A program made the translations under genes and the position numbers. Below are positions 41,819 to 57,085 of a DNA stretch of 64,000 nt, in pieces; position 1 is the stretch's first letter, and the number at the start of each line of letters is the position of its first letter. Origin of the DNA: Halarcobacter sp. (GTDB lineage: Bacteria; Campylobacterota; Campylobacteria; Campylobacterales; Arcobacteraceae); the NCBI GenBank assembly GCA_963676565.1, contig OY781089.1:1088001-1152000 (forward strand). Direction: 5' to 3'. Under the pieces are notes generated by a model. It was not told where the DNA came from and did not search any database. It was given only the letters and a program-made list of their open reading frames with translations.

Positions 41819-41891
41819 TAAATAAACTAATTCTTTTCATTATTAAAAGATAAAATGCTACAATACGCCAATTTTTAAAAGGGATACAAAT

Positions 41892-42491
41892 ATGCTTCAT
41901 AGTATTGTAGATTTTATAGTTCAGACAGTTGGCACTTTAGGTTATAGCGGAATTTTCATAATGATGTTTTTAGAAAGTACTTTTTTCCCTTTTCCTAGTG
42001 AGGTAGTAATGATTCCAGCTGGTTACTTAGTTCACAAGGGTGAGATGAATATGGCTATGGTTTTATTTTGTGGAATATCAGGTTCTCTTGCTGGAGCACT
42101 TTTTAACTACTACCTAGCTATTTATGTAGGTCGAGCTGTTTTAATAAAATATGGGAAATATTTTTTCATAAAAGAATCTACAATTCAAAAAGCTGAAAGG
42201 TTTTTCCAAAACCATGGACATATCTCAACTTTTAGTGGAAGATTAATACCTGCTGTTAGACAACTTATATCATTTCCAGCTGGATTAGCTAGAATGAATA
42301 TTGTAAGTTTTTCTATATATACAACTTTAGGTGCCTCTATTTGGGTTGTTATATTAACTTTGCTTGGTTATTACATTGGAGATAATGAAGCTTTAGTAAA
42401 AGAGTATTTATCAACAATTATTTATGTATTATTAGGATTAATTGCCTTAGGTGTTTTCATTTATTATAAAAGAATAAACAAAGGTTTATAA
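41892..42491 (+). CDS. DedA family membrane protein
   Basis: FLES...PFPSE, GRLIPAVR..IS.PAG. Confidence 0.92.
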   Translation: MLHSIVDFIVQTVGTLGYSGIFIMMFLESTFFPFPSEVVMIPAGYLVHKGEMNMAMVLFCGISGSLAGALFNYYLAIYVGRAVLIKYGKYFFIKESTIQKAERFFQNHGHISTFSGRLIPAVRQLISFPAGLARMNIVSFSIYTTLGASIWVVILTLLGYYIGDNEALVKEYLSTIIYVLLGLIALGVFIYYKRINKGL

Positions 42492-42492
42492 A

Positions 42493-43128
42493 ATGAAAAA
42501 AGCTATTGTAACTGGTTATTCTTCTGGAATTGGAAAAGCAATTTGTGAAATTTTAGAAGAAAATGATTACAAAGTTTTAAAGTTAAAATCAAGACTTGAA
42601 GATACTAAAGCACTAGAATCAGAAGTGAAAAAGCTATTAAAAGAAAATGAAATTGATTTGTTAGTTAATTGCGCTGGTCTTGGAATATTTAAACCCCATG
42701 AAGAGATTTCAATTCCAAAAATTCAAGAATTAATAAATATAAATCTTACTGCACCAATTATACTTTCAAGTTTACTTTTAAGAACTCTAAAAAAAACAAA
42801 AGGGCATATTATAAATATTGCTTCAATTGAAGCAACAAGGCATTCCAAATTTTCAGCACTTTACACGGCAACAAAATCAGGCCTTAGAAATTTTTCTTTA
42901 ACTTTATTTGAAGAGTTAAGAAAATCAGATGTTAAAGTTACTACAATTAATCCAGACCTTACTAAAACAAACTTTTTTGATGAGTTTAACTTTGAACCTA
43001 GCGAAAATAAAAACGCCCATCTCTTACCTCAAACAATTGCAAATACAGTTTTAGATATTTTAAATTTTGATGGGGTTATCACAGAAATCACTGTTCGTCC
43101 CCAGCGACTAGAGATTAAAAAAAAATAA
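42493..43128 (+). CDS. Short-chain dehydrogenase/reductase
   Basis: TGYSSGIG, NCAG, YTATK. Confidence 0.9.
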   Translation: MKKAIVTGYSSGIGKAICEILEENDYKVLKLKSRLEDTKALESEVKKLLKENEIDLLVNCAGLGIFKPHEEISIPKIQELININLTAPIILSSLLLRTLKKTKGHIINIASIEATRHSKFSALYTATKSGLRNFSLTLFEELRKSDVKVTTINPDLTKTNFFDEFNFEPSENKNAHLLPQTIANTVLDILNFDGVITEITVRPQRLEIKKK

Positions 43129-43191
43129 AAAAAATATTTTAAGTTATACAATTAAAGAATAATTTTTGTGTAATAAATGTACAAGAAATAC

Positions 43192-43220
43192 TTGACAATG
43201 TAAAAAAAAGTAGTTAAGAT
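43192..43220 (+). promoter_or_regulatory. Sigma70-type promoter of the ectoine cluster leader
   Basis: TTGACA (43192-43197), 17-bp spacer, TAAGAT (43215-43220). Confidence 0.75.
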
Positions 43221-43250
43221 TTACCTATATTTTTATAGGAGGCTACAAAG

Positions 43251-43400
43251 ATGTTATTTATTAATTGTTCAAAATTAAAACATTTTATTTGCTTAGCCTT
43301 AATTAAACTCTTTAGAACTTTCAAAATTAATGTAAGACCTGTAAAAGAGATTCAAAACTTACTAATCCAAGAAAAAAGCTTTATTTTAACTGCCATATAG
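43251..43400 (+). CDS. Putative 49-aa leader peptide
   Basis: AGGAGG at 43237-43242, ATG 43251, open to TAG 43398-43400: MLFINCSKLKHFICLALIKLFRTFKINVRPVKEIQNLLIQEKSFILTAI. Confidence 0.6.
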   Translation: MLFINCSKLKHFICLALIKLFRTFKINVRPVKEIQNLLIQEKSFILTAI

Positions 43401-43500
43401 ACCCTCGCAATTTATTTAGTGTGTAATAAATTGTAAGTCATTTAAATAATATATTTAAATATTTATTATTTAAATGACTTAGTAGGGTCTTTTTTATTTT
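43399..43500 (+). terminator. Branched terminator/attenuator-like structure before the first ectoine gene
   Basis: AGACCCT(43399-43405)/AGGGTCT(43484-43490) followed by a T tract, enclosing two hairpins including an 18-bp perfect IR (43434-43451/43464-43481). Confidence 0.65.
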
Positions 43501-43533
43501 AAAAAAATCAAAAATTATATTAAGGAAAAAATT

Positions 43534-44778
43534 ATGTTAAACGATAAAACAGTATTTGAAGAGAATGAATCAGAAATTAGAGCTTATTGTAGAGCAGTAC
43601 CAACTGTTTTTAAATCATCAAAAAATGCAATTATGATTGACGAAAATGATAAAGAATTTGTAGACTTTTTTGCAGGAGCTGGAGTTTTAAACTTTGGTCA
43701 CAATAATCCAAAAATGAAAGAAGCGGTAATAGAGTTTTTACAAAGGGATGGAGTAGTTCATTCCCTTGATATGTTTACAGATGTTAAAAGAGATTTTATT
43801 TCAACATTTGTTGAAACAGTTTTAAAGCCTAGAGGAATGGGTGATTATAAACTTCAATTTACAGGACCAACAGGAACAAATGCAGTTGAAGCAGCACTTA
43901 AACTTGCTAGAAAAGTAACTGGAAGAACAGAGATTGTAGCTTTCCATAGAGGTTTCCATGGTATGACTTTAGGTTCACTTGCTTGTACTGCAAATAATGC
44001 CTTTAGAAGCTCATCAGGAGTTCCTTTAAATAATGTTATTAGAGGAACATTTAATGACATGGAAGCTCTAGATAGAATGAGAGAACAAATGTTTGATGCA
44101 GGATCTGGGATGTTACCACCAGCTGGATTTATAGTAGAACCAGTACAAGCTGAAGGTGGTGTTAGGCCAGCAACAAAAGAGTGGCTTCAAGCAGTACAAA
44201 AACTTGCACGAGATACTGGAGCATTATTTATCCTTGATAGTATTCAATGTGGTAATGGTAGATGTGGAAGCTATTTCAGTTTTGATGATTTAGATGTTGA
44301 CCCAGATATTAATATTTGTGCAAAAGGTTTAGGTGGATTTGGTACACCAATTGGTATGTTAGTAAATAAACCAGAAATCGACAAAGCTTGGGGACCAGGA
44401 CAACATACTGGTACATTTAGAGGACAAGGTATCTCATTTGTAGCAGGTAAGGTTGCCTTAGAATATTTTAAAGATGAGGAGTTTAATAAAGAGACTATTA
44501 GAAAAGGTAAAGTGATTAGAACCTTACTTGATGAGATGAATGAAAAATATCCTCAAGTTACAGATATTAGACAAAAGGGGATGATGTTAGCAATAAACTT
44601 TGATAATGCGGCAACTGTTAAAGAGATTACTGGAAAATGTTACGAAAATGGTTTAATTATTGGAGCTTGCTCAACGGGTGAGATTATTAAATTTATTCCA
44701 CCTTTAACAATTGAAGATGAAGTTTTAGAAGAGGGACTAAAAAGATTTAAAGCTTCAGTTGAAGCTGTATTAGGTTAA
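43534..44778 (+). CDS. Diaminobutyrate aminotransferase, EctB-type (class III PLP)
   Basis: FEENESEIRAYCR..PTVF, DFFAGAG.LNFGHN, QFTGPTGTNAVEAALK, FHGMTLG, HTGTFRG. Confidence 0.88.
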   Translation: MLNDKTVFEENESEIRAYCRAVPTVFKSSKNAIMIDENDKEFVDFFAGAGVLNFGHNNPKMKEAVIEFLQRDGVVHSLDMFTDVKRDFISTFVETVLKPRGMGDYKLQFTGPTGTNAVEAALKLARKVTGRTEIVAFHRGFHGMTLGSLACTANNAFRSSSGVPLNNVIRGTFNDMEALDRMREQMFDAGSGMLPPAGFIVEPVQAEGGVRPATKEWLQAVQKLARDTGALFILDSIQCGNGRCGSYFSFDDLDVDPDINICAKGLGGFGTPIGMLVNKPEIDKAWGPGQHTGTFRGQGISFVAGKVALEYFKDEEFNKETIRKGKVIRTLLDEMNEKYPQVTDIRQKGMMLAINFDNAATVKEITGKCYENGLIIGACSTGEIIKFIPPLTIEDEVLEEGLKRFKASVEAVLG

Positions 44779-44918
44779 AAGCAACTCGTTGCTTTCTTTA
44801 GAATTTCTCAAAGAGAGTACAAGTACAAGGCTTCTTTAGATGAGATTTATTCTCATTGATAAAAGAAGTTAAAAAATATAGGTCCCTGAAAAAATGGGAC
44901 ATTTTTTAAGGAGAAATT

Positions 44919-46319
44919 ATGGGATATAGCTCAACACATTTTAAATCAATAAATCCATACAATGAAGAGATTGTATGTGAAGTACCAATGCATACAAAAG
45001 AACAGGCAAGAGAAATTATAGAAAATGCTCAAGAAGCATATGTTGGTGAGTGGATTAATACAAGTTATGAACAAAGAGCAAAGCTTTTAAATGCAGTTGC
45101 AAAAGAGATGAAAGATAACCTTGATTATTACGCTCTTCCTATGACTGAAGAGATGGGTAAACCTATTAATGAAGCAAGAGGGGAAGTTAATAAAGCTGCA
45201 TGGGCAGCAGAACACTATGCAAGTTTTGGAGAAGAGTATTTAAAAACTGAATACTTAGAATCAGATGCAACTGAAAGTTATGTTCAGTATTTACCCCTTG
45301 GAGTAACACTTGGAGTGTTACCTTGGAATGCACCTTTTTGGTTAGCTTTTAGATACTTAGCTCCTGCACTTATGTCTGGAAATACTTGTATTATGAAACA
45401 TGACTCACATACTCCATTATGTGCACTTAGAATAGTCGAAGCCTTTACTAAAGCAGGGTTTCCTACAAATGTTGTTCAAAATCTAATGGTAGGACATTCA
45501 TTACTTGAAGATGTAATTAGACATGAAAATGTAATGGGAGTTTCACTTACAGGTTCATCAAAAGCAGGTGCTGCCGTTGGAGCTATTGCTGGAAGTGAAA
45601 TTAAACCAGTTGTTTTAGAACTTGGTGGTAGTGACCCAGCTATTATTTTAGCAGATACCCAAGATTTAGAAAAAGCAGCTGATGTGGTTGTTTTATCAAG
45701 ATATATAAACGCTGGGCAATCTTGTATTGCTGCAAAAAGAATTATCGTTGAAGAGCCAATTTATGAAAAATTTATAGAACTTTTAAAAGAAAGGTTTGAG
45801 AAATTAAAACTTGGTGATCCTAAAGATGAGTCAACAACTATTGGACCAATAGCTAGACGTGAGTTAGTTGAAGAGATGCATGAGCAAGTTGATAGATCAG
45901 TTGCAGCAGGAGCTAGATTAGTTCTTGGTGGTCAAAGATTAGATGATATGCAAGGGTTTTTCTTCCCTGTGACTATTTTAGCTGATGTAGAACCTGGTAT
46001 GGTTGTTTCTTGCCAAGAAACATTTGGACCAATAGCATCCGTTATAAAAGTAATAGATGAAGAGGAAGCTATAAAAATAGCAAATGCAACAGATTATGGT
46101 TTAGGTGGTTCTGTTTGGACAGGGGATGTCGAAAAAGGTAAAAAAATAGCTTCAAGAATTGTAACAGGACAAGTTTCAATTAATGGAATAGTTAAATCAG
46201 ACCCAAGGCTTCCAAGTGGTGGAGTAAAAAAATCTGGACTTGGAAAGGAGTTAGGACCACATGGAATTAGAATGTTTGTAAATACTCAACAAGTTTGGGT
46301 AGGTCCAGTTAAAAGTTAA
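44919..46319 (+). CDS. NAD(P)-dependent succinate/aspartate-semialdehyde dehydrogenase (DoeC-like role)
   Basis: PWNAP, TGS, LELGGSDP, NAGQSC, ETFGP. Confidence 0.88.
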   Translation: MGYSSTHFKSINPYNEEIVCEVPMHTKEQAREIIENAQEAYVGEWINTSYEQRAKLLNAVAKEMKDNLDYYALPMTEEMGKPINEARGEVNKAAWAAEHYASFGEEYLKTEYLESDATESYVQYLPLGVTLGVLPWNAPFWLAFRYLAPALMSGNTCIMKHDSHTPLCALRIVEAFTKAGFPTNVVQNLMVGHSLLEDVIRHENVMGVSLTGSSKAGAAVGAIAGSEIKPVVLELGGSDPAIILADTQDLEKAADVVVLSRYINAGQSCIAAKRIIVEEPIYEKFIELLKERFEKLKLGDPKDESTTIGPIARRELVEEMHEQVDRSVAAGARLVLGGQRLDDMQGFFFPVTILADVEPGMVVSCQETFGPIASVIKVIDEEEAIKIANATDYGLGGSVWTGDVEKGKKIASRIVTGQVSINGIVKSDPRLPSGGVKKSGLGKELGPHGIRMFVNTQQVWVGPVKS

Positions 46320-46334
46320 GTTTTGGAGAAGAAA

Positions 46335-47522
46335 ATGAATAAAACAAAACTTGCCTTTACTAAAAAGGAATATATTCAAAGGGTTAAAAGAGTTAAATCT
46401 TTAATGCAACAAAGGCGAATTGACGTCTTAGTTGCAACTGACCCAGGAAACATGAATTGGCTAACTGGTTATGATGGGTGGTCATTTTATGTTCATCAAG
46501 GGGTAATTATCTCATTAGATCATGAAGAACCTATTTGGTTTGGAAGACTTATGGATGTGAATGCAGCATTACTTAGATGTTACATGAGTAAAGAGAATAT
46601 GATTGGTTATCCTGAAATGTATGTACAAAATCTAGATGAGCATCCAATGACATGGATTGGAGAAAATATTTTCAGAAAAAATAAATGGGAAAAATGTGTT
46701 ATTGCAACTGAAAGGGACAATTACTACTATTCTGCAGAAGCTCATTTTAGATTAACTGCAACTTTACCAAATGCAACATTTGTAAATGCCAATAATCTAG
46801 TAAATTGGGTTAGAGGTAAAAAGTCAGCAAAAGAGATTGAGTATATGAAAATTGCTGGAAGAATTACTGAAAAGATTCATCAAAGAGTACTTGATATTGT
46901 AAGACCTGGTATTCCAAAATCCCATGTAGTTTCTCAAATTTATGAAACAGCAATTGCGGGAGTTGATGGTTATGGGGGAGATTATCCTTCAATCGTACCT
47001 CTACTTCCCTCAGGAAAAGAAGCATCAGCATCTCATATTACTTGGGATGATAGCCCTTTTAAAAGAAATGAAGCAACATTTTTTGAGATATCTGGGTGTT
47101 ATAAAAGATACCATGCTCCTATGTCAAGAACAATTTATATGGGAAAACCAAATCAAAAATTTCTTGATGCAGAAAAGGCATTGCAAGAAACAATAGAAGC
47201 AGGACTTGAAATGGCAAAGCCAGGAAATACAACTGCTGATATTGCAAATGCAGCCCAAAAAGTTATGAATAAATACGGTATTGATAGAAACAATGCAAGA
47301 TATGGATATCCAATTGGAGTTAGTTATCCACCCGATTGGGGTGAGCGAACTTGTAGTTTAAGAAGTACAGATTTAACAGTTCTTGAACCGGGTATGACCT
47401 TTCATTTTATGCCAGGGATTTGGCAAGAGGATTGGGGAGTTGAGATTACAGAAAGTATTCATATTACTAAAGATGGGGTAGAAACTTTTTGTAATTTTCC
47501 AAGACAATTATTTCTAAAGTGA
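46335..47522 (+). CDS. doeA: Ectoine hydrolase DoeA/EutD (M24 family)
   Basis: MNWLTGYDGWSFYVHQ, GGDYP, YPPDWGERT, GMTFHFMPG.W..DWG.EITESI. Confidence 0.9.
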   Translation: MNKTKLAFTKKEYIQRVKRVKSLMQQRRIDVLVATDPGNMNWLTGYDGWSFYVHQGVIISLDHEEPIWFGRLMDVNAALLRCYMSKENMIGYPEMYVQNLDEHPMTWIGENIFRKNKWEKCVIATERDNYYYSAEAHFRLTATLPNATFVNANNLVNWVRGKKSAKEIEYMKIAGRITEKIHQRVLDIVRPGIPKSHVVSQIYETAIAGVDGYGGDYPSIVPLLPSGKEASASHITWDDSPFKRNEATFFEISGCYKRYHAPMSRTIYMGKPNQKFLDAEKALQETIEAGLEMAKPGNTTADIANAAQKVMNKYGIDRNNARYGYPIGVSYPPDWGERTCSLRSTDLTVLEPGMTFHFMPGIWQEDWGVEITESIHITKDGVETFCNFPRQLFLK

Positions 47523-47613
47523 CACTAAATATAGGGGGTGTATCTATAAAAAAGCTTATATTTAAAACCAGACAGAGAAAAAGCGATAAAACAAACAAAG
47601 AAAGGAATTTGAT

Positions 47614-48621
47614 ATGAAATTATTTAAAGGATTGGTAATAGCAGGTTTAATTACTGCTACAAGTTTGAGTGCAGCAACATGGAAATATGCTTTTGGTGAA
47701 GGTACAAGTGACCCTCAAGGTATTTATGCAACTGCATTTAAGAGTTTTATAGAGGATAATTCAAGAAATAAAATAGAACTATATAAGGTTGGGTCTTTAG
47801 GTGAAGAAACTGACATGATGGAGCAAACAAGAGCTGGTTTACTTCATTTCTTAGGTCAATCAACAGGATATATGGGTGGAACTATTCCTGAGATGGATGT
47901 TTTTACAGTTCCTTATGTGATGCCTACAGATACAAAACAATTGGATTATTTCTTTAAAAACTCAAAAGTAATTAATGAGATGCTTCCAACAATTTTCCAT
48001 AAACATGGATTAGAATTATTATCTATTTTCCCTGAAGGAGAGATGGCTGTTACAACTTTTGAAGAGTTTCATTCACCTGCAGATTTAAAGGGTAAAAAGA
48101 TGAGAGTTATGCCAGGTTCTCCTATTTTGGTTGAAACATATAAAGCTTTTGGAGCATCTCCTCAACCTATGTCATGGGGTGATTTAGTTGGTGCACTTAA
48201 AACAGGAATGGTTGATGGACAAGAAAACCCAACAGTATGGATTGAAGCATATGGTTTAGATGATTTAACAAAAGTTTTAACATATACAGGACATGGACAC
48301 TTTAATGCATCAGTTAGTGCAAATAAAAAGTTTTATGACGGATTATCAAAAAGAGATAAAAAATTAGTTCAAGAAGCTGCTAAGTTTGCCCATAAAACAA
48401 TTTTACAAGAGGCTCAAAAACTTGATGCTTATGGATTAGGAAGAATTGTAAGAACAAATCCTAGTTATAAAATTGTAACTTTAACTGAAGATGAAAGAAA
48501 AGTATTTAAAGAAGAAGCAAAAGCTGTTCAAGAATCATTCGCTTCAAAAAGTGATTCAAATAAAAAAATTATGACTCAAATGATGAAAGATTTAGCCGAG
48601 GCTGAAGCAAATGCTAAATAA
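47614..48621 (+). CDS. TRAP substrate-binding protein, TeaA/UehA-like
   Basis: Signal peptide, WKYA..E, PEGEM, LKTGMVDGQENP; in the ectoine cluster. Confidence 0.85.
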   Translation: MKLFKGLVIAGLITATSLSAATWKYAFGEGTSDPQGIYATAFKSFIEDNSRNKIELYKVGSLGEETDMMEQTRAGLLHFLGQSTGYMGGTIPEMDVFTVPYVMPTDTKQLDYFFKNSKVINEMLPTIFHKHGLELLSIFPEGEMAVTTFEEFHSPADLKGKKMRVMPGSPILVETYKAFGASPQPMSWGDLVGALKTGMVDGQENPTVWIEAYGLDDLTKVLTYTGHGHFNASVSANKKFYDGLSKRDKKLVQEAAKFAHKTILQEAQKLDAYGLGRIVRTNPSYKIVTLTEDERKVFKEEAKAVQESFASKSDSNKKIMTQMMKDLAEAEANAK

Positions 48622-48707
48622 TTTTTAATATATAGTAATCCACTTTTAGTGGATTTACTATAGTAGATTACAAAGTGTTGTAACCTACTATAGTAAAAGG
48701 AAGAATT

Positions 48708-49277
48708 ATGGACACTAGTACAAAGAACCCAATACTAAAAGCTTTAGATTTTGTAGACAAAATGCTAAGCAAATTTGAAGGTATTATGCTTGCTTTAGGT
48801 GTAATTGCAATGGCAATAATAACTATACTTTCAGTTATTACAAGATTTATTTTTAATGATGCCTTAACAATAACAGATGAACTAAATATGATTTTTATTG
48901 TAATAGTTACCTTTGCTGGTCTAAGTTACGCAGCTAGAAATGGAAGACATATTAGAATGTCTGCAATATATGATGCTCTTCCAACAAAAATTAGAAAAGT
49001 CTTTATGATATTTATCTCTTTAATCACTTCAATTTTTATGTTCATATTAGCAAAATATTCATATGGATATATAGTTGAGGTATATGAAAGTGGAAGAATA
49101 TTGCCAGCAATTGGAATACCAGTATTTTATGTATATTTATGGGTTCCTATTGGTTTTACTGTTACAGGGCTTCAATATTTTTTTACAGTTATAAAAAATA
49201 TTAGAGAAGATGATGTTTTTCTTTCAACAAAGGTAAGAGATGGATACAGCGATAGTAACAACGATATGGAAGTATAA
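48708..49277 (+). CDS. TRAP small permease DctQ (TeaB-like)
   Basis: TFAGLSYAARNGRHIRMSAIYDALP. Confidence 0.88.
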   Translation: MDTSTKNPILKALDFVDKMLSKFEGIMLALGVIAMAIITILSVITRFIFNDALTITDELNMIFIVIVTFAGLSYAARNGRHIRMSAIYDALPTKIRKVFMIFISLITSIFMFILAKYSYGYIVEVYESGRILPAIGIPVFYVYLWVPIGFTVTGLQYFFTVIKNIREDDVFLSTKVRDGYSDSNNDMEV

Positions 49278-49286
49278 GGAAGAAAG

Positions 49287-51047
49287 ATGCAAAAGTTTAT
49301 AAAACAATTTTTAATAATTTCTACAATTTTAGTTGGATTTTCCATATCTGCTTTTTCAAAAGAGAATATAATTTTATACTTTGATGAGATTGCTATTGAG
49401 GATAAAGTGAATCTTTCTATTTATGGTTCAGCAGAATCAGAAGATTTTTCTTCCCATAAATGGCAAATTATAAATGTAAAAGTAAAAGGTAGTAAAAATA
49501 AAGAGCTTCTTTTTAGTACTGAGACTGATAAAAAAGGTTTTTGGGAAGTTGAGAATATAGATATCAAAGATTTTAGTGATGGAAAGCTTAATATTGAAGT
49601 TAAAATGATGACAGAAGATGGTGAAGTTTTGGCTTCTTTAGTAGATAAAAACACTATAAAAGATACAAGTTTTAAAATAACTGAATTTCTAAAAAATCAT
49701 TTATCAGCATCAATTTTTTCATTAATGGTGATTTTATTACTACTTGGTTTTCCTATGATGATTCCATTAATTGCAGGAACCTCATTGGGGGTTTTCTTAC
49801 TTTTTGATGGAGATTTTTCAAAAATGGAGTTTCTAATTCAGCAGATGATGGGAGGAATTAGACCAGCTGCATTAATTGCAGTTCCTATGTTTATTCTATC
49901 TGCTGATATTATGACTAGGGGGAAAAGTGCAGAAAAGCTCATTGATTTAGTAATGGCTTTTGTAAGACATATTAAGGGTGGACTTGCAGTTAGTACAGCA
50001 GGAGCTTGTGCTATGTTTGGTGCTGTTTCTGGTTCTACTCAGGCAACTGTTGTTGCAATTGGATCTCCTTTAAGACCAAGACTTAAAAAAGGTGGATATA
50101 AAGAATCATTTATTTTAGCTCTTATAGTAAATTCAAGTGATATCGCCTTTTTAATCCCTCCAAGTATTGGGATGATTATTTATGGAATTGTTGCTAAAAC
50201 ATCTATTCCTGAACTTTTTATTGCAGGGATTGGACCTGGATTATTAATCCTTTTTCTATTTTCAATTTATAGTATTATTTATGCATATAGACATAATATC
50301 CCAACTGAACCAAAAGCTACATGGAAAGAAAGGGGTAGTGCTTTAGTAAATGCCTTATGGCCTTTAGGTTTCCCTGCAATTATTGTTGGGGGTATTTTTG
50401 GAGGAATCTTCTCTCCAACTGAAGCTGCTGCTGTTAGTGTAGCATATGCAATTTTCTTAGAAGGTATTGTTTTTAAAACAATGAAATTAAAAGATTTGTA
50501 TGCAACTGCTAAATCAACTGGATTAGTAACAGCTGTTGTATTTATATTAGTTGGAGCTGGAGCTGGATTTGCATGGGTTTTATCATTTGCTCAAATTCCA
50601 CAACAAATTTTAAGTTCTATTGGTATTACTGAAATGGGACCTTATCAAGTTTTATTTGTAATCTCAATCGCTTTTTTTGTTGGGTGTATGTTTGTTGATC
50701 CAATTGTAGTTATATTAGTTTTAGTTCCTATTTTTGCACCAATTGTAAATTCAGTTGGATTAGATCCAGTTTTAGTGGGAACTATTATTACACTTCAAGT
50801 AGCAATTGGTTCTGCAACTCCACCTTTTGGTTGTGATATTTTTACAGCTATTGCTGTATTTAAAAGACCATATTTAGAAGTAATAAAAGGAACACCACCA
50901 TTTATTTTTATTCTTTTAAGTGTATCTGTTGCTTTAATTTTCTTTCCAGATATTGCACTATTTTTAAGGGATGTTGCCTTTAGAGAATTAAATGTAATCG
51001 ACTATTTCCAAAATCTATTTGGTTTTAGTGCTCAAGTAATAGAATAA
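49287..51047 (+). CDS. TRAP large permease DctM (TeaC-like) with extra N-terminal soluble domain
   Basis: LLLLGFPMMIPL, IAFLIPPSIG, SATPPFG; about 135 extra N-terminal residues. Confidence 0.9.
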   Translation: MQKFIKQFLIISTILVGFSISAFSKENIILYFDEIAIEDKVNLSIYGSAESEDFSSHKWQIINVKVKGSKNKELLFSTETDKKGFWEVENIDIKDFSDGKLNIEVKMMTEDGEVLASLVDKNTIKDTSFKITEFLKNHLSASIFSLMVILLLLGFPMMIPLIAGTSLGVFLLFDGDFSKMEFLIQQMMGGIRPAALIAVPMFILSADIMTRGKSAEKLIDLVMAFVRHIKGGLAVSTAGACAMFGAVSGSTQATVVAIGSPLRPRLKKGGYKESFILALIVNSSDIAFLIPPSIGMIIYGIVAKTSIPELFIAGIGPGLLILFLFSIYSIIYAYRHNIPTEPKATWKERGSALVNALWPLGFPAIIVGGIFGGIFSPTEAAAVSVAYAIFLEGIVFKTMKLKDLYATAKSTGLVTAVVFILVGAGAGFAWVLSFAQIPQQILSSIGITEMGPYQVLFVISIAFFVGCMFVDPIVVILVLVPIFAPIVNSVGLDPVLVGTIITLQVAIGSATPPFGCDIFTAIAVFKRPYLEVIKGTPPFIFILLSVSVALIFFPDIALFLRDVAFRELNVIDYFQNLFGFSAQVIE

Positions 51048-51069
51048 TTTTAAGTAAAAAGGAGATGTG

Positions 51070-51525
51070 ATGTTTAAAAAAATATTAGTACCAACTGATG
51101 GTTCAGAACAAGCAAATAAGGCTTTGGATTTAGCTTGTAAAATGGCCATGGAAAATGATCAAACTCAGATAAATATATTGTCAGTTTTTAGACATCATAG
51201 TTTTACAGAAGCTTCATTAGCAATGCTTCCAAGACAAGTAGATGATGAAGCTGCAAATTTAGATGAGGTTATGAGAACATATGCAAAGGAGTTAGTTGCC
51301 AAATCAAAAGAGCTTGCTATTGAGTATGGATTAGAAAAACATAGGGTAAGAGGTTTTATTAGAATTGGGCAAGTTGCAAAAGAGATTTTAGATTTTATAA
51401 AAGAGGAAGATGTTGATTTAATTATAATTGGGAAACAAGGAAGAGGAGATTTAAGTGGTTATCTTTTAGGTGGAGTTTCCCATAAAGTTACAGGTCTTGC
51501 AAAAATCCCAGTAATGGTTGTATGA
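51070..51525 (+). CDS. Universal stress protein (TeaD-like)
   Basis: KILVPTDGS, IIGKQGRG...LLGGVSHKV; follows the TRAP genes. Confidence 0.9.
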   Translation: MFKKILVPTDGSEQANKALDLACKMAMENDQTQINILSVFRHHSFTEASLAMLPRQVDDEAANLDEVMRTYAKELVAKSKELAIEYGLEKHRVRGFIRIGQVAKEILDFIKEEDVDLIIIGKQGRGDLSGYLLGGVSHKVTGLAKIPVMVV

Positions 51526-51680
51526 TGATTTTATTTGATATTAGAAAAATCAATAGTATCTATTGCTTTAATAGAGTCTATTCAAAGGTAGCTTACTCGT
51601 CCAGATTATAAAAGGATTAAAGTTTTTAATCCTGCAATATTTTATAAATAATTTAAATAAATTCTTAATCGGACAAAAAA

Positions 51681-52841
51681 ATGAAAAATAAAACAATGAA
51701 AGCTATGGTTTTAACAGGCCATGGAGATATAAATAAAATAAAGTACAAAGATGTAGCAATACCAAAACCAAAAAAAGGTGAGGTATTAGTTGAAGTTCAT
51801 GCCACTGCCAAAAATAATACTGATAGAAAAGCTAGAATTGGTGTTTATGGGGTGGATGATAAAAATAAAGATGAAATTACATCCTTTGATATGAGTGGGG
51901 ATAACACTTTTACCTTTCCTAAAATTCAAGGTGCAGATATAGTTGGAACAATTGTAGCAGTTGGTTCAGAAGTTTCAACTAGTAGAATTGGAAAAAAAGG
52001 TTTAATAGATTTTAATATCTATTTAGACCTTGAAAAAAATGATAATTTAAATCTAACTCCTGATTATATAGGACATGGTTGTGATGGAGGCTTTGCTGAA
52101 TATGTAGTAGTTCCCGATGAAAATTTTTATAATATGTCAAATCTTGATATAAGTGATGCCCAACTTGCAAGTTTAGGTATGTGTTCATATCAAACAGGAC
52201 TTCGAATGCTAAATGCTTCAAGGGTAAAAAAAGGAGATTTAGTATTAGTTTCTGGGGCAAGTGGTGGAGTTGGAACTGCTTTAATTCAAATGTGTAGAAT
52301 CTTAGGGGCAATTCCTTATGCCTTAAGTAGTAAAGAAAAAGAGGCGCAACTTCTAAAAATAGGAGCCGAAAAAGTAATTGATAGAGCAGATATAAATAGC
52401 TTAAAACAAAGAGTTTTAGAAGCAACAAATGGAAAAGCTATAGATGCAGTTATGGATATGGTTGGTGGAGAATACACAAATGTTTTCTTAGATTGTATGA
52501 TTACTGATATGAAAAATAAAAGTGACTATCCAAGACTTAGTATTGCAGGAGCTAGTGGAGATAATCTAACACAAATTATGTGGTCAAAGATATATCTATA
52601 TCAAATAGAGATTCATGGAGTTTCCCATGGAACTAGAAATGAAGTAAAACAATTAATGAAATGGATTAGAGAGGGGAAATTAAAACCTATGCTTCATGCC
52701 ACATTTAAGCTTTCTGAGCTTCATAAGTGTGAAGAGTATTTTGCAAATAGGTCAAATAATTATCTTGGAAAAGTAGTAGTAATTCCTGATTCAAAATGGG
52801 ATGAATATGGGAAAGAGTTTGCTCAAAAGGATTCTTTATGA
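51681..52841 (+). CDS. MDR-family NAD(P)-dependent oxidoreductase (probably Zn-free)
   Basis: NNTD, IQGAD (no GHE), GGFAEY, SGASGGVG, GKVVV. Confidence 0.85.
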   Translation: MKNKTMKAMVLTGHGDINKIKYKDVAIPKPKKGEVLVEVHATAKNNTDRKARIGVYGVDDKNKDEITSFDMSGDNTFTFPKIQGADIVGTIVAVGSEVSTSRIGKKGLIDFNIYLDLEKNDNLNLTPDYIGHGCDGGFAEYVVVPDENFYNMSNLDISDAQLASLGMCSYQTGLRMLNASRVKKGDLVLVSGASGGVGTALIQMCRILGAIPYALSSKEKEAQLLKIGAEKVIDRADINSLKQRVLEATNGKAIDAVMDMVGGEYTNVFLDCMITDMKNKSDYPRLSIAGASGDNLTQIMWSKIYLYQIEIHGVSHGTRNEVKQLMKWIREGKLKPMLHATFKLSELHKCEEYFANRSNNYLGKVVVIPDSKWDEYGKEFAQKDSL

Positions 52842-53881
52842 GTTCAAAAGAGCATAAAATAGGTCTAATTGATACCCACGCTGGAGGTGATGTTAGTAGA
52901 ATAGTTTTTTCTGGAGTTAAAAAACTTCCAGGGAAAACTGTAAGAGAGCAAATGGAATACTTACAAAAAAAGGCAGATGGTTTAAGAAAAACATTACTTT
53001 TTGAGCCATATGGAATCCCTGAGATGTCAATAGATTTAGTTGTTCCAGCTTGCGAAAGCGAAGCAGTTGCAGGATATATTATTATGGAAGTGATGGGATA
53101 TCCTATCTATTCTGGGTCTAATACTTTATGTACAGCAACTGCGGTTATTGAAAAAGGATTAGTAGCTAAAAAAGAGGGAATAACAAATTTTAAACTTGAA
53201 TCTCCTGCAGGTTTAGTTGATATTGAAGCAAATATAGTAAATGGTGTTGTTGAATCTGTAACTTGTCAAGGATTACCAAGTTATATTCATTCTTATAAAC
53301 AGATAATTAATATACCAAATTTGGGAGAAGTTACTTATTCAATAGCCTATAGTGGTGGTTTTTATGTTTTAGTTGAAGCCTCGCAACTTGGTTTTAAATT
53401 AAATAAAAGTGAAGAGGAAGAGTTATCTAAAACTGCATATATGATAATTGAAGAAATTAGAAAAAAACAGGATTTTAAACACTATAGTTTAGGTGATGTG
53501 GGACCTATTCCTTTTTTACATTTTATGGGTGAAGTTACTAAAAAACAGGAAGGTTTATATAGCTCACCTTCAACTACTTATGTACACCCAGGGGTTATTT
53601 GTAGAAGTACAACAGGAACAGGAACTTCAGCTAGACTTGCATATTTATATTATGAAGGAAAGATAAAACAAGGGGATAGATTAGAGACTATTTCCTTAAG
53701 AGATACAAGATTTATTGGAGTTTTTGAAAGTGTTGAAAAACAAAAAAACTACAATGTTATTAACAACAAAATTTCAGGTAAAAGTTATATCATAGGTAAA
53801 CAAGATATTTATATTAATTGTGATGATCCAATGTTAAATCATCTTAATAGTTTGAATGAATTAACAGATCTACTTGAATAA
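52838..53881 (+). CDS. Proline racemase superfamily protein with Ser/Thr catalytic pair (dehydratase-type)
   Basis: DTHAGG..SR, EPYG, YSGSN, CRSTTGTGTSAR. Confidence 0.85.
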   Translation: MSSKEHKIGLIDTHAGGDVSRIVFSGVKKLPGKTVREQMEYLQKKADGLRKTLLFEPYGIPEMSIDLVVPACESEAVAGYIIMEVMGYPIYSGSNTLCTATAVIEKGLVAKKEGITNFKLESPAGLVDIEANIVNGVVESVTCQGLPSYIHSYKQIINIPNLGEVTYSIAYSGGFYVLVEASQLGFKLNKSEEEELSKTAYMIIEEIRKKQDFKHYSLGDVGPIPFLHFMGEVTKKQEGLYSSPSTTYVHPGVICRSTTGTGTSARLAYLYYEGKIKQGDRLETISLRDTRFIGVFESVEKQKNYNVINNKISGKSYIIGKQDIYINCDDPMLNHLNSLNELTDLLE

Positions 53882-53899
53882 GATAAAAAGGAGAATTAT

Positions 53900-55060
53900 A
53901 TGTTAAAAAAATTTGAAGAGGTTGTAAACTTTGCAATAGATTTTAGACACAATTTACATAAACACCCAGAATTAAAATGGGAAGAAACTAATACAGCAAA
54001 ATCTATTAGAGATATTTTAGATGAGTATGATATTCCTTATAAAACCTATGCAAATACAGGAACTTGTGGACTTTTAGCACAAGATAAAAAAGGCCCTCAT
54101 ATTGCAATTAGAGGTGATATTGATGCCCTTGCATTAGTAGAAAAAACAGATGTACCATATAAGTCAACAAAAGAGCAATGTATGCATGCTTGTGGGCATG
54201 ATGGTCACACAGCAACACTAATGACGGCTGCCATTTGGTTAAAACAAAATGAACATCTATTAGAAAACCCAGTAACACTTTTATTTCAACCAGCAGAAGA
54301 GGGTGGTCATGGAGCTAAGAAAATGATAGAAGAGGGTTGTTTAGATGGTGTTGATATGATTTTTGGTTGGCATAATTGGCCTGCTATTAAATTTGGTCAA
54401 GCTGTATGTCCCGATGGTACTGTAATGGCTGGAAATGGAACTTTTCATATAAATATAAAAGGAAAGGGTGGACACTCTTCCCAACCTGAATTATGTCATG
54501 ACCCAGTTTTAGCAGCAAGTGCTATGACATTAAATCTCCAACAAATAATAAGTAGACAAGTCTCTCCACAAGATAGTGCAGTTGTTTCAGTAACTTCAAT
54601 TGATGGGAAAAGTGATTTAACTACAATCCCTGATTTTGTAAAACTTGAAGGAAGTATTAGAGTGCCAACTGATGAGTTAAAGAGTTTTGTTTTTAATAAA
54701 ATAGATGAGATTGTAAAAGCAACTGCAAAAACTTATAACGTAGAGGTTGATGTTGAATTAAGAGATAGGTATGGAGCAACAATAAACCACAAAACCCAAG
54801 CGGAAATGGTTAGAGAAGAGTTAAAAAATCAATTGGGTGAAAATTGGGAAAGTGATATTCCAACACCTATTATGGCAAGTGAAGATTTTAGCTATTATTT
54901 AAACACAATACCTGGAGCTTTTGCACTTATTGGAAGTGATGATGGGGTTGAAAAACATCAAAAAGCTTGTCATAATGTTCATTATGATTTTAATGATAAA
55001 TTAATATCTCCAGTTAGTAAAACTTTAATGAGATTAGCTGGTTACAAAGGAGAGTTTTAG
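53900..55060 (+). CDS. M20 amidohydrolase (putative N-acetyl-diaminobutyrate deacetylase)
   Basis: RHNLHKHPEL, RGDIDAL, MHACGHDGH, FQPAEEG, SEDF. Confidence 0.85.
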   Translation: MLKKFEEVVNFAIDFRHNLHKHPELKWEETNTAKSIRDILDEYDIPYKTYANTGTCGLLAQDKKGPHIAIRGDIDALALVEKTDVPYKSTKEQCMHACGHDGHTATLMTAAIWLKQNEHLLENPVTLLFQPAEEGGHGAKKMIEEGCLDGVDMIFGWHNWPAIKFGQAVCPDGTVMAGNGTFHINIKGKGGHSSQPELCHDPVLAASAMTLNLQQIISRQVSPQDSAVVSVTSIDGKSDLTTIPDFVKLEGSIRVPTDELKSFVFNKIDEIVKATAKTYNVEVDVELRDRYGATINHKTQAEMVREELKNQLGENWESDIPTPIMASEDFSYYLNTIPGAFALIGSDDGVEKHQKACHNVHYDFNDKLISPVSKTLMRLAGYKGEF

Positions 55061-55069
55061 GAGATACAA

Positions 55070-55540
55070 TTAGGCAATTGGCCTATTGTATCTCATAAAA
55101 TATATAGATGGAATTGCAAGTCCAAAGCCAATTCCCCCTAAAATAGTAATTGTTTTTAAACCATTTTCAACAAAAATAGTAATAAGTTCAGGGGTAACTC
55201 CATGGGCACTCATATTTATAAGATTTATAACAGCATTAAAAGCATATGTTCCGGGAATCAAAGGTATAATTGAAGCAATCGTATAAACAGGTCTTGGAAT
55301 AATATATTTTCTTGACCAATATAGAGCAACTAAACCAACTATTGTAGAAGCTAAAAATGTTGCAAGTTCAATACTAAAATTTATATCCATTAAAATAGTT
55401 CTTGAAGTATATGCAATTGCTCCACCAAATCCACAATATATAAGTGTATGTTTAGGAACATTAAAAACCATACCAAAGCCAATAGCTGGAATGGCAGCAA
55501 AAATTGCATTTATAATATAATTAATTAATTCAGTACCCAT
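55070..55540 (-). CDS. ThrE/YjjB family exporter small subunit
   Basis: GFGMVFNVP, IIPLIPG..A. Confidence 0.88.
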   Translation of the reverse strand: MGTELINYIINAIFAAIPAIGFGMVFNVPKHTLIYCGFGGAIAYTSRTILMDINFSIELATFLASTIVGLVALYWSRKYIIPRPVYTIASIIPLIPGTYAFNAVINLINMSAHGVTPELITIFVENGLKTITILGGIGFGLAIPSIYFMRYNRPIA

Positions 55541-55541
55541 A

Positions 55542-56333
55542 TTACCAACCTTTTAAGTCTAAAATTACAAAGGCAAAAACAATCCCAATTGCAGTTGCTA
55601 CTGTTAATAAAACAGCTTGCATCCAACGACCCCAACCCATGGCTAGATAACCTTTTACAGCATCTAAAACAGAATTGATAAAAGGGAAACCAGGAGCAAG
55701 TAAAATTACACTTGATGATAAAGCAATATCTATCTTATCACTTAATTCATATATATGGGCAAGTCCAGAGATTATTGTTGCCACAAAAGCAGTTGCAGCA
55801 AAGGTTATAATCATCACAAACTTTCTTTTTGCTAATTCTTGTCTAGTAAACATAGCTACACTTGATGCAACAAAAGTGACAAAAAATGAGATTAAATCTG
55901 CTCCGTTTAAGTATGCAAAAGAGGCACATGATAAACCAATCATAAAAACTACAAGCCATCTATTATAATAGTTTGCTTGAATCTCTTTCATTGTTTTTAA
56001 TACAAAACTTACATCTTTTTTTTCTTTTTCTGTTTGATGACACATCCTTTGAACATCACAAACAATAGACATGTTTATTGGTTTATGGTATGCCCTTCTT
56101 GTTGTTGTAACAGAGTGTGTTTGATTGTTTGTTAGTGTTGTTAAAACAATAGCCGAAGGGATTAGAGAAAGTTCAACGGAATCAACACCTAAAGCCTTTC
56201 CTAATCTTTGAGCAGTTTGTTCTATAAGTCTACTTTCTGCACCATATTCAAGCATTAATACAGCAGCTTTAATTACAGCCCTTGTAATCTTTGTTTGTTC
56301 TTCGTAAGTTAGTTGTGTTTGTATCTCTTCCAT
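55542..56333 (-). CDS. ThrE/YjjP family exporter large subunit
   Basis: YGAESRLIE, GLSCASFA, LAPGFP.INSV.D. Confidence 0.9.
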   Translation of the reverse strand: MEEIQTQLTYEEQTKITRAVIKAAVLMLEYGAESRLIEQTAQRLGKALGVDSVELSLIPSAIVLTTLTNNQTHSVTTTRRAYHKPINMSIVCDVQRMCHQTEKEKKDVSFVLKTMKEIQANYYNRWLVVFMIGLSCASFAYLNGADLISFFVTFVASSVAMFTRQELAKRKFVMIITFAATAFVATIISGLAHIYELSDKIDIALSSSVILLAPGFPFINSVLDAVKGYLAMGWGRWMQAVLLTVATAIGIVFAFVILDLKGW

Positions 56334-57085
56334 TATTTTATAAAATCTTTTATTTTTAGTATATTTCCACCATCATCAGCAATATAAAGATTACCTTTTT
56401 TATCAAAGGTTATTCCTTCTTGATCATAATAGTTTGTTAGTTTGTATTCTTTTTTTGTCTTTTGTTTTTTTAAATCATATTCAATTAAAAGTGAATCTTT
56501 ATCACTTACCATAAAAAGATTATTTTTATAAAAAGTTAATCCTGCAATATCTTTATATCCATGGTTTATAATCTCTTTAATCTTTTGTTTTTTCTTTTTC
56601 AAATCGTAATCAATAACCACAATTACAGAAGAGTCTTCTTTTGGATAAAGCTTATTAGATTGGTTTGATAAATATATTTTATCTTTTAATATGGCAATAC
56701 CTTCAATACCATCATTACCTTTTTTTAAAACCTTAATTCCATCAAATTCTCTTTTTATTGAGATCTCTTTTTTCTTTTTAAAATTTTTTTTTGATAGGAC
56801 TAAAATATTATCTTCACCTTCAATTGCTACTAATAAAATATCTTTTTTATCATCAACTGCAACACCTTCAAAATCATATTTCCCTATCTCTTTTTCCCTT
56901 AGAATTTTACCTTCTAAATCTAATTCATAAATTGAACCCTCATCTGCAACAACAAAAAGTGTGTTTGATTTTTTTGAGTAAGTGATACCAGAAGCCTCTT
57001 GAATTTTCGAAATTATAATCTCTTTTGCTAACATATTTTGAATTAAACCATTAAAAATTAAAACTATAAGAAGAAATCTTTTCAT
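56333..57085 (-). CDS. SdiA-regulated (YjiK-like) beta-propeller protein
   Basis: EASGITY, FEGVA, EGIA, QEGITFD..GNLYIAD. Confidence 0.8.
   Translation of the reverse strand: MKRFLLIVLIFNGLIQNMLAKEIIISKIQEASGITYSKKSNTLFVVADEGSIYELDLEGKILREKEIGKYDFEGVAVDDKKDILLVAIEGEDNILVLSKKNFKKKKEISIKREFDGIKVLKKGNDGIEGIAILKDKIYLSNQSNKLYPKEDSSVIVVIDYDLKKKKQKIKEIINHGYKDIAGLTFYKNNLFMVSDKDSLLIEYDLKKQKTKKEYKLTNYYDQEGITFDKKGNLYIADDGGNILKIKDFIK

Follow-up and report, generated by a model that had tools for sequence, protein, structure and literature searches.

Here we describe a block of ten genes in a 64-kb window (the whole stretch of Halarcobacter sp. DNA analysed, 64,000 nucleotides of contig OY781089.1, with positions counted from its first letter), which is predicted to serve the uptake and catabolism of ectoine and 5-hydroxyectoine in a member of the Arcobacteraceae. 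The ten open reading frames (ORFs) lie at 43534-55060, all on the plus strand, and each of the ten matches the Pfam family named for it beforehand, as the first-pass annotation of ten co-oriented genes had held. In order, these families are Aminotran_3, Aldedh, Peptidase_M24 with Creatinase_N, DctP, DctQ, DctM, Usp, ADH_N with ADH_zinc_N, Pro_racemase and Peptidase_M20. The successive intergenic gaps are 140, 3, 91, 86, 9, 19, 155, -4 (an overlap) and 18 bp, and the genes may be co-transcribed. The features of the block, including a TRAP (tripartite ATP-independent periplasmic) transporter and a medium-chain dehydrogenase/reductase (MDR), are as follows.

43129..43533, plus strand: leader/intergenic region of 405 bp, holding only ORFs of at most 49 aa
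43534..44778, plus strand: EctB-like L-2,4-diaminobutyrate:2-oxoglutarate transaminase, presumed catabolic (DoeD role); passes NF006733
44919..46319, plus strand: aldehyde dehydrogenase, probably converting aspartate semialdehyde to aspartate (DoeC/Ssd role); Pfam Aldedh, 465 bits
46323..47522, plus strand: predicted ectoine hydrolase of the canonical DoeA/EutD type, with a TTG start; TIGR02993, 587.2 bits, and PDB match
47614..48621, plus strand: TRAP substrate-binding protein, TeaA/UehA type; PDB matches to TeaA and UehA
48708..49277, plus strand: TRAP small membrane subunit, DctQ/TeaB-like; Pfam DctQ, 91 bits
49287..51047, plus strand: TRAP large membrane subunit, DctM/TeaC-like; Pfam DctM, 354 bits over residues 146-555
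51067..51525, plus strand: universal stress protein, in the TeaD/usp position of known ectoine TRAP operons; Pfam Usp, 97.5 bits
51681..52841, plus strand: zinc-independent MDR-family reductase; Pfam ADH_N and ADH_zinc_N
52838..53881, plus strand: proline-racemase-family enzyme with a Ser/Thr dyad; Pfam Pro_racemase, 278 bits
53900..55060, plus strand: M20 amidohydrolase DoeB2 (predicted N-alpha-acetyl-diaminobutyrate deacetylase); passes NF038260
55061..55076, no strand: right island edge, followed by a weak hairpin (55071-55085) and convergent ThrE-family exporter genes

The cluster had been placed at 43192..55060, of which the end stands but the start does not, since the transaminase gene, the first of the ten, starts at 43534; the best promoter-like match in the leader (TTGACA-17-TAAGAT, 43192-43220) has 43192 as its first base. 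By consensus matching, such promoter-like sites are no commoner than in shuffled sequences (62 vs. 58.9 ± 8.3), a terminator scan likewise did not rise above shuffles, and a scan of 38000-60000 against Rfam gave no family at E ≤ 0.1.

The block is more than a chance run of genes, because it is GC-richer than its flanks (0.30-0.35 vs. 0.24-0.29), is missing as a block from same-genus genomes and recurs in 11 other genomes of the family. The host genome is a single 3.34-Mb contig, and positions 40000-59000 of the window were searched as DNA in five same-genus genomes. One of these (G141) matches the full 19 kb colinearly at 92%, while another (G020, locus L150) presents a clean empty site, in which the upstream short-chain dehydrogenase/reductase (SDR) gene abuts the downstream ThrE-family gene and 43129-55075 is missing; the same flanks lie only 0.8-1.6 kb apart in G056 and G071. 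The left edge falls at about 43129-43139. In G129 (L149, G129:C1:1192500-1196000), an intact 386-aa M20/DoeB2 gene begins 5 bp after the SDR stop codon, and the nine island genes matching 43139-53883 are absent, as is the AAGGAG ribosome-binding site; we read this locus as the outcome of a deletion that spared only the deacetylase gene, now an orphan, and the events may also have run in the reverse order. The reading we favour for the block is that of an 11.9-kb island acquired by horizontal transfer.

Conservation was followed across 151 genomes of the family (22 genera), with an ortholog defined as a proline-racemase-family protein of at least 65% identity. Such an ortholog occurs in 12 of the genomes, this one included, and in three of the genera, and 13 further genomes hold only paralogues of about 30% identity. 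All ten genes are found in 10 of the 11 other loci, and the remaining one (L109) shows nine, its contig ending where the binding-protein gene would lie. Nine of these 11 loci keep the gene order of the window, and two, from another genus, start with the three TRAP genes and continue through usp, MDR, the racemase-family gene and M20 to the transaminase, aldehyde dehydrogenase and DoeA genes; the gene set thus survives rearrangement, as the same genes recur in two orders. The flanks vary between groups: SDR and ThrE genes in the window and in G141, a major facilitator superfamily gene with a DAO-type oxidoreductase in L103-L105, L107 and L108, and hemerythrin and aconitase genes in L109 and L110. 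In L101, L102 and L106, the neighbours are divergent genes for an aspartate ammonia-lyase and an asparaginase-like protein, which are not found at the window's site; they fit aspartate as the end product of the pathway and would carry it on to fumarate. A co-oriented gene for a YgjV-like inner-membrane protein (181-188 aa) follows doeB2 as an eleventh gene in L101-L108 and is absent from the window and from G141.

A role of the cluster in ectoine uptake and catabolism, as proposed in the first-pass annotation, is well supported by the DoeB2 model and by the matches to TeaA/UehA and DoeA. The predicted hydrolase aligns over residues 8-399 of its 399 with the Halomonas DoeA structures 6TWK, 6YO9 and 6TWJ (E 3.8e-163), and by tblastn it is 58% identical to DoeA of Halomonas sp. 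H2, 55% to that of Sinorhizobium meliloti and 74% to a Nitrincola homologue. It scores far higher on the DoeA/EutD equivalog model TIGR02993 than on the DoeA2 model NF038259 (only 211 bits), and both this and the full-length match agree with the canonical type assigned to it earlier. The M20 enzyme passes the DoeB2 equivalog model NF038260 (620.6 bits vs. a cut-off of 550) and, as anticipated, is of another type than EutE/DoeB. Its gene is clustered with those of the ectoine hydrolase and the diaminobutyrate transaminase both here and at the 11 related loci, with the orphan in G129 as the exception.

The transport genes likewise bear out the TeaABCD-like module that had been described, as a binding protein close to TeaA/UehA is encoded with the TRAP subunits and is followed by usp. 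Its best PDB matches are TeaA (3GYY/2VPN, E 1e-87 to 2e-86) and UehA (3FXB, E 5e-86), both of them structurally solved receptors for ectoine and hydroxyectoine, and the next match stands at 4e-37. Among the residues that we take to be the ligand contacts of TeaA, E9, R144, W167, N184, W188 and F209 are identical in the alignment and F66 is replaced by Tyr; the protein is a predicted ectoine/5-hydroxyectoine receptor. The large subunit bears an N-terminal extension of about 145 aa (49287-49720), made up of a signal/transmembrane-like segment and about 110 residues without a family match; tblastn finds the subunit at full length in the same-genus loci L100-L102 and L106 and over only about 1340 nt in another genus (L103-L105 and L107).

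The transaminase passes the diaminobutyrate transaminase subfamily model NF006733 (550 bits vs. 438), falls below the cut-off of the EctB equivalog TIGR02407 (470.8 vs. 552) and does not lie in an ectABC operon. It is 45% identical to the host's own EctB, compared with 24% to S. meliloti Atf and 26% to the transaminase encoded beside Halomonas DoeA, in line with the earlier view of an EctB-type rather than an Atf/DoeD-type enzyme. The dehydrogenase passes no NCBIfam equivalog, its best being the succinate-semialdehyde dehydrogenase (SSADH) model PRK09406 (464 vs. 730). It had been called canonical, which holds at the level of the family but not of the subfamily, where it is 32-34% identical to the Ssd/DoeC proteins of Halomonas and Sinorhizobium and 50-58% to those of the gene clusters described next.

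The transaminase, dehydrogenase and deacetylase had been regarded as a new rewiring of the pathway, a claim that falls because all three belong to a cluster already modelled by NCBIfam (DoeA2, NF038259; DoeB2, NF038260). Across 151 genomes sampled from the Pseudomonadales, 21 have DoeB2 above the cut-off, and 20 of these loci were compared, the 21st lying at a contig end. Eighteen of the 20 encode, in this order, the M20 enzyme, an EctB-like transaminase, a DoeA-like/DoeA2 hydrolase and an aldehyde dehydrogenase, and two have the same run without the hydrolase. Identities to the island proteins are 51-59% for the M20 enzyme, 50-60% for the transaminase and 50-58% for the dehydrogenase, whereas the DoeA-like hydrolases are only 27-30% identical to that of the island; at locus L129 the hydrolase passes DoeA2 (797 vs. 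575) and the M20 enzyme passes DoeB2 (675). This gene order is also that of doeBDAC in Methylomicrobium alcaliphilum 20Z, where, according to the accessible text of the report, doeA and doeB mutants support the ectoine hydrolase and deacetylase functions, the cluster has no regulator gene and DoeB is 22% identical to Halomonas DoeB (PMC7192451). That identity, the gene order and the NCBIfam names together suggest that the M. alcaliphilum DoeB is of the M20 type. NCBI records already give the name DoeB2 to homologues in Arcobacter, Halarcobacter, Malaciobacter, Nitrincola, Sulfurospirillaceae and others, and the Arcobacteraceae hydrolase likewise already bears the name DoeA in public annotation. 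The source names attached to close homologues also bear out the Campylobacterota lineage proposed earlier, since they point to an Arcobacteraceae-like host.

The island resembles doeBDAC in its M20-type deacetylase, EctB-like transaminase and SSADH-like dehydrogenase, in lacking a regulator gene within the cluster and in belonging to a host that also produces ectoine. Unlike doeBDAC, it has a canonical DoeA hydrolase (587 bits, against 211 on DoeA2) and another gene order, and it adds a Tea-like TRAP transporter, a universal stress protein and the MDR/racemase-family pair. With the canonical eut/doe clusters, such as the Ruegeria pomeroyi operon given as uehABC-usp-eutABCDE... in the 2018 review (PMC5924519), it shares a TeaA/UehA-like TRAP transporter followed by usp, the DoeA/EutD ring hydrolase and the predicted chemistry leading to aspartate, and with the ectoine clusters of Sinorhizobium, Rhizobium and Paracoccus an MDR homologue. 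It differs from the canonical clusters in its transaminase and dehydrogenase subfamilies, and EutE/DoeB, EutABC, EnuR and AsnC/DoeX were not found in it. The island is therefore a mosaic, since doeD, doeC and doeB2 genes of the doeBDAC-order type are combined with a canonical DoeA, a Tea/Ueh transporter with usp and two extra genes, and its core is, as far as sequence comparison goes, a recombination of modules that have already been described.

Elsewhere in the genome (2397063-2400683, minus strand) lies an ectA-ectB-ectC-ask operon containing the true EctB of the host (643.8 bits on TIGR02407), and thus the organism makes ectoine and, by prediction, also degrades it, a combination that carries the risk of a futile cycle. 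EctD was not found in the host genome (best match 47.8 bits), so any hydroxyectoine that is handled must come from outside. Genome-wide profile searches (TIGR02990/02991/02992) upheld the earlier statement that EutA, EutB and EutC are missing: EutC gave no match, and neither did EutA, the latter being a weak negative, as the EutA control matched nothing in any control genome. The best EutB match (17187-18407, minus strand) was rejected as a stray eutB, as it reaches 268.7 bits against a cut-off of 413 and passes the IlvA model TIGR01127 at 505. The best EutE/DoeB match in the genome (TIGR02994, 101.2 bits vs. 402.7) lies far from the island. The scan of the IlvA-like protein lists EutB beside models for threo-3-hydroxy-L-aspartate ammonia-lyase and the beta-hydroxyaspartate dehydratase BhcB. 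EutC is a member of the ornithine cyclodeaminase (OCD) family, to which the iminosuccinate reductase BhcD also belongs; as an idea only, EutB and EutC might act on 3-hydroxyaspartate derived from hydroxyectoine. The lack of a regulator that had been pointed out also holds: no regulator, including those of the EnuR and AsnC/DoeX types, was seen within the cluster or next to it, either in this genome or in the annotated flanks of the relatives, and a scan of 16 flanking proteins gave no transcription factor.

Taken together, we consider it likely, with a probability of roughly 0.75, that the island lets this ectoine-producing bacterium import ectoine and 5-hydroxyectoine and degrade them to aspartate; hydroxyl removal by the MDR/racemase-family pair is a less certain part of this reading. 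The steps are predicted from gene content, family assignments, boundaries, conservation and co-occurrence as read directly from the genomes. The TeaABC-like TRAP transporter with its TeaD-like universal stress protein would import both compounds, the canonical DoeA/EutD would open the ectoine ring to N-alpha-acetyl-diaminobutyrate, DoeB2 would remove the acetyl group, the EctB-like transaminase would form aspartate semialdehyde and the aldehyde dehydrogenase would convert it to aspartate.

A role chiefly in osmoprotectant recovery, by TeaABCD-type recapture of leaked ectoine, with the enzymes trimming the internal pool after an osmotic down-shift (a role put forward for Methylomicrobium and Halomonas) rather than serving nutrition, seems rather unlikely as the main function. 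The ectoine synthesis operon of the host and the lack of a substrate-responsive regulator in or beside the cluster speak for it, as do precedents: Halomonas TeaABC is described in the 2018 review as osmoregulated and recapturing ectoine, and the doeBDAC paper, in its accessible part, describes internal turnover after dilution (PMC7192451). Against it stand the placement of transporter and enzymes in one co-oriented block, as in the substrate-induced operon of R. pomeroyi, the absence of EctD, by which hydroxyectoine must be external, and the aspartate ammonia-lyase neighbour in three relatives. Recovery and nutrition do not exclude each other.

The two extra genes overlap by 4 bp and the pair appears translationally coupled. 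The MDR passes no NCBIfam cut-off, and its best solved relative is PDB 4J6F (E 4e-82). Zinc alcohol dehydrogenases carry C-H-T/S-D and G-H-E, which supply Cys and His-Glu ligands, at two positions where the alignment shows H-A-T-A-K-N-N-T-D and Q-G-A-D (TA and GAD), so that the catalytic-zinc ligands are not seen in the MDR. On this pattern it groups with the double-bond or imine reductases of the family and not with the alcohol dehydrogenases. The structure 4J6F is identical in the aligned stretches to a gene on S. meliloti pSymB, whose product is 42% identical to the island MDR and which is the last gene of an asnC-ssd-atf-MDR run, divergent from a MocR-type regulator and the ehuABCD-eut genes. 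Rhizobium johnstonii pRL12 has the same annotated layout, and in Paracoccus yeei a plasmid-borne run, ehuCD-eutA-eutB-cyclodeaminase-doeA-doeB-ssd-atf, closes with an MDR of 52% identity. An MDR homologue was found in 196 plasmid records, 173 of them from Rhizobium or Sinorhizobium; five annotated loci besides that of S. meliloti 1021 comprise three in ectoine clusters, one in Nitratireductor that is not, and a stand-alone MDR/racemase-family pair in Tsukamurella. The 2018 review reports, in its accessible part, that in S. meliloti ectoine induces an 'oxidoreductase' encoded next to the transaminase and dehydrogenase, and counts 'adh' among the cluster genes whose role it leaves undefined (PMC5924519). 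The rhizobial and Paracoccus loci and this ectoine-induced oxidoreductase tie the MDR family independently to ectoine catabolism.

The proline-racemase-family protein aligns with the solved 3-hydroxyproline dehydratases 6R76 and 4K7G, its S92 (SGSN, with N95) and T259 (TTGTG) falling on Ser90, Asn93 and Thr256 of 4K7G, and both motifs are invariant in 16/16 aligned members. In 4K7G, the dehydratase of Agrobacterium vitis, the active site has a Ser/Thr arrangement in which Asn positions the Ser, as against the two Cys of racemases and epimerases (PMC4113996). The DRSP motif of 6R76 and 4K7G, whose Asp holds the prolyl nitrogen in the family enzymes covered by the accessible text of that study (PMC4113996), is replaced by C255-R-S-T (CRST), again in 16/16 aligned members. 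The curated 3-hydroxyproline dehydratase model was failed by a wide margin (235.4 bits vs. 550). Because of this failure and the CRST motif, the protein represents a distinct subfamily, suited to dehydration rather than epimerisation and probably acting on another substrate. Fold family, SGSN and Thr positions and the coupling of a dehydratase gene to a nicotinamide-type reductase gene are common to it and to the 3-hydroxyproline dehydratases; the missing nitrogen-binding Asp, the zinc-free MDR partner in place of OCD or MLD2 and the ectoine gene context set it apart.

We regard the coupled pair as a tentative candidate, somewhat short of even odds, for a hydroxyl-removal module. In the route that it would provide, the Ser/Thr syn-dehydratase of the racemase family eliminates water from 5-hydroxyectoine, and the zinc-free MDR would use NAD(P)H to reduce the unsaturated enamine/imine product back into the ectoine line; alternatively, the dehydratase could act on ring-opened hydroxy-N-alpha-acetyl-diaminobutyrate, with N-alpha-acetyl-diaminobutyrate as the eventual product. 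5-Hydroxyectoine is a cyclic alpha-imino acid that carries a hydroxyl at the beta position, and by our own assignment of the stereocentres its (4S,5S) form would share the relative configuration of (2S,3S) trans-3-hydroxy-L-proline, the substrate of the syn-dehydrating Ser/Thr enzymes. The dehydratase could thus take the native isomer as it is, with no need of an epimerase. The lost nitrogen-binding Asp would equally fit an uncharged amide nitrogen, as in hydroxy-N-alpha-acetyl-diaminobutyrate, which would suit the gene order MDR, racemase-family gene, doeB2; we know of no acyclic substrate for the Pfam Pro_racemase family. An earlier model has EutA inverting the hydroxyl, EutB dehydrating to 2-methyl-1,6-dihydropyrimidine-4-carboxylate and EutC reducing this to ectoine (PMC5924519), while a study of R. 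pomeroyi, in its accessible text, still calls the EutABC activities unknown and finds that hydroxy-diaminobutyrate quickly becomes diaminobutyrate (PMC8739950). The fuller claim that the pair is a previously unrecognised two-enzyme 5-hydroxyectoine dehydroxylation module, acting on the native (4S,5S) isomer or on the ring-opened N-acetyl product, is a little more doubtful still.

The rhizobial loci could also be read to mean that the MDR acts in ectoine catabolism generally rather than in hydroxyl removal, for example by reducing a reactive unsaturated or imine by-product of the diaminobutyrate/aspartate-semialdehyde branch, with the racemase-family enzyme feeding it otherwise or acting elsewhere. 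In the rhizobia the MDR gene does stand beside the transaminase and dehydrogenase genes and alongside EutABC, likewise in P. yeei, and the pair is not complementary to EutC-like genes. The rhizobial MDRs are, however, only 40-42% identical to that of the window, compared with 57-63% for the racemase-paired type, and may for this reason differ in substrate. Moreover, 18 of the 20 doeB2 clusters have no adjoining MDR and the matches in the other two are only 24-25% identical, which argues that the core route does not need an MDR; we therefore hold a common step to be improbable.

Beyond the family, scanning a single genome for each species turned up 442 stretches that encode a racemase-family relative, and close relatives with 62-68% identity occur in Halomonas, Vreelandella, Marinobacter, Marinospirillum, Nitrincola, Alloalcanivorax and others. 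Of the best 80 of the 442, 77 have an upstream MDR homologue (57-63% identity) in the same orientation, which is directly adjacent in 76. Only one of these 80 loci, from a Halarcobacter metagenome-assembled genome (MAG), holds the other eight genes, and homologues of EctA, EctC and EctD occur in none. The pair is also carried by a contig of Halomonas salifodinae JCM 14803 (L085). In H. salifodinae IM328, a doeA deletion strain still slowly loses ectoine and hydroxyectoine, for which its authors infer another pathway (PMC11142988).

Co-occurrence at the level of whole genomes was assessed with one-sided Fisher tests in the Pseudomonadales sample, in which eight of the 151 genomes hold the racemase-family gene at E ≤ 1e-80, and in 101 Halomonadaceae genomes with 48 holders, one of them broken by a stop. 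In the Pseudomonadales, EctC is found in 8/8 holders and 57/143 other genomes (p 9e-4) and EctD in 6/8 and 18/143 (p 2e-4). In the Halomonadaceae, the corresponding counts are 45/48 and 29/53 for EctD (p 6e-6) and 45/48 and 34/53 for DoeA (p 2e-4), and all 48 holders have EctD or DoeA. EctC is present in all five named gammaproteobacterial holders, one of which combines DoeA with a broken EctD fragment. These distributions are compatible with a hydroxyectoine-linked role of the pair and give no sign that it replaces EutBC.

This scattered occurrence bears on a further explanation, namely that the island handles ectoine only and that the pair is a passenger salvaging trans-3-hydroxy-L-proline or a similar cyclic imino acid, as a 3-hydroxyproline dehydratase with a new pyrroline-2-carboxylate reductase. 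The SGSN/Thr dyad shared with the solved dehydratase of trans-3-hydroxy-L-proline (t3HypD) 4K7G would suit such a role, as would the solitary pairs of the gammaproteobacteria and the holders that lack DoeA. We nevertheless find it unlikely, given the low score on the dehydratase model (235 against a cut-off of 550) and the replacement of the Asp of DRSP by Cys. The reductase genes described next to known t3HypD genes encode OCD or MLD2 rather than MDR proteins (PMC4113996, in its accessible text), usp and doeB2 flank the pair in every one of the 12 Arcobacteraceae clusters, whichever of the two gene orders they have, and MDR homologues lie inside canonical eut operons.

Several observations weigh against ectoine and hydroxyectoine catabolism with the pair as its hydroxyl-removing part. 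On TIGR02993 the hydrolase falls 26 bits below the cut-off of 613, and the DoeA proteins sampled from Halomonadaceae reach 637-673. Outside the family, the relative closest to it in the samples, from a Nitrincola MAG (74% identity, 583.5 bits; L119/L120, G155:C1, 22644-23819), adjoins GAK-system ATP-grasp, FecI/FecR-like and MauG-like genes, with no ectoine genes nearby. For a cationic amidinium ring, the change of Asp to Cys would be unexpected. In 79 of the best 80 neighbourhoods no homologue of EctA, EctB, EctC or EctD, or of any of the eight remaining island genes, lies close to the pair, and in the four that are annotated its neighbours are unrelated and variable. Three of the five named gammaproteobacterial holders lack DoeA while having EctD, and the co-occurrence p-values are overstated, because the genomes are kin and share halophily. 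EutC-like genes (57 of the 101 Halomonadaceae genomes at E ≤ 1e-100, none above the curated cut-off) are found in 28/48 holders and 29/53 others (two-sided p 0.84), hence they are not complementary to the pair. On this account, and as the MDR coexists with EutABC in Paracoccus and rhizobia, we rejected it as a simple replacement of EutC; the R. pomeroyi operon, as quoted in the accessible part of the review, has no such MDR gene (PMC5924519). Finally, A1U2K1 is among the proteins assayed in the eLife 2014 study (PMC4113996). Presumably A1U2K1 is a Marinobacter protein, going by its accession alone, and its result could bear directly on this subfamily.

Outside the island, the window encodes a chemoreceptor, a VTT protein, the SDR, two ThrE-family proteins, an SdiA-regulated-like protein and a sensor kinase as neighbours of the cluster. 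The chemoreceptor is of the dCache type (39293-41818, upstream), and the kinase, a histidine kinase with two SBP_bac_3 domains and PAS (57082-59871, downstream), is probably not dedicated to the island, because its region also occurs in island-free genomes. Three oligo-dT RNA runs gave two partial reads each, and one metatranscriptome (X20) has contigs 92-95% like the transaminase-to-binding-protein genes (43567-48371), in which DNA carry-over is possible and which show no transcript structure; DNA data sets holding this same stretch include, by their labels, salt-marsh and wastewater metagenomes. None of these data sets is used as evidence here.

Ectoines rank among the major compatible solutes, and within marine dissolved organic matter they form a nitrogen-rich fraction. 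Their consumers, according to the accessible part of the 2018 review, are Alpha-, Beta- and Gammaproteobacteria and one deltaproteobacterium (PMC5924519). A 2026 survey adds Thermodesulfobacteriota, Bacillota, Actinomycetota and Archaea; its accessible text contains neither 'Campylobacter' nor 'Arcobacter' and mentions an 'abgB' amidohydrolase in Gram-positive clusters, the role of which it calls unknown. Our literature searches found nothing on ectoine catabolism in Arcobacter or Campylobacterota, one Arcobacter paper covering synthesis genes only, and nothing under DoeB2, under 4J6F or linking hydroxyectoine catabolism with proline racemase; a search of the literature since 2019 for a 5-hydroxyectoine dehydratase in Halomonas degradation found nothing relevant.

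The pair is the more useful lead for further work, being small, soluble, widespread and directly assayable, at a time when the hydroxyl-removal step of EutABC is still undefined. If the proposed module is true, it would explain the stand-alone pair across the 442 stretches, mostly from halophiles with EctD, as well as the 'adh' of the rhizobial and Paracoccus eut operons and with it part of the hydroxyl-removal question, and it would be relevant to industrial hydroxyectoine production in Halomonas, where product is still lost after doeA deletion (PMC11142988). For the family, the island indicates that a complete predicted route for ectoine catabolism can be present in Arcobacteraceae, common inhabitants of saline and sulfidic environments, and that this route travels as a cassette put together from two pathway versions that were already known.

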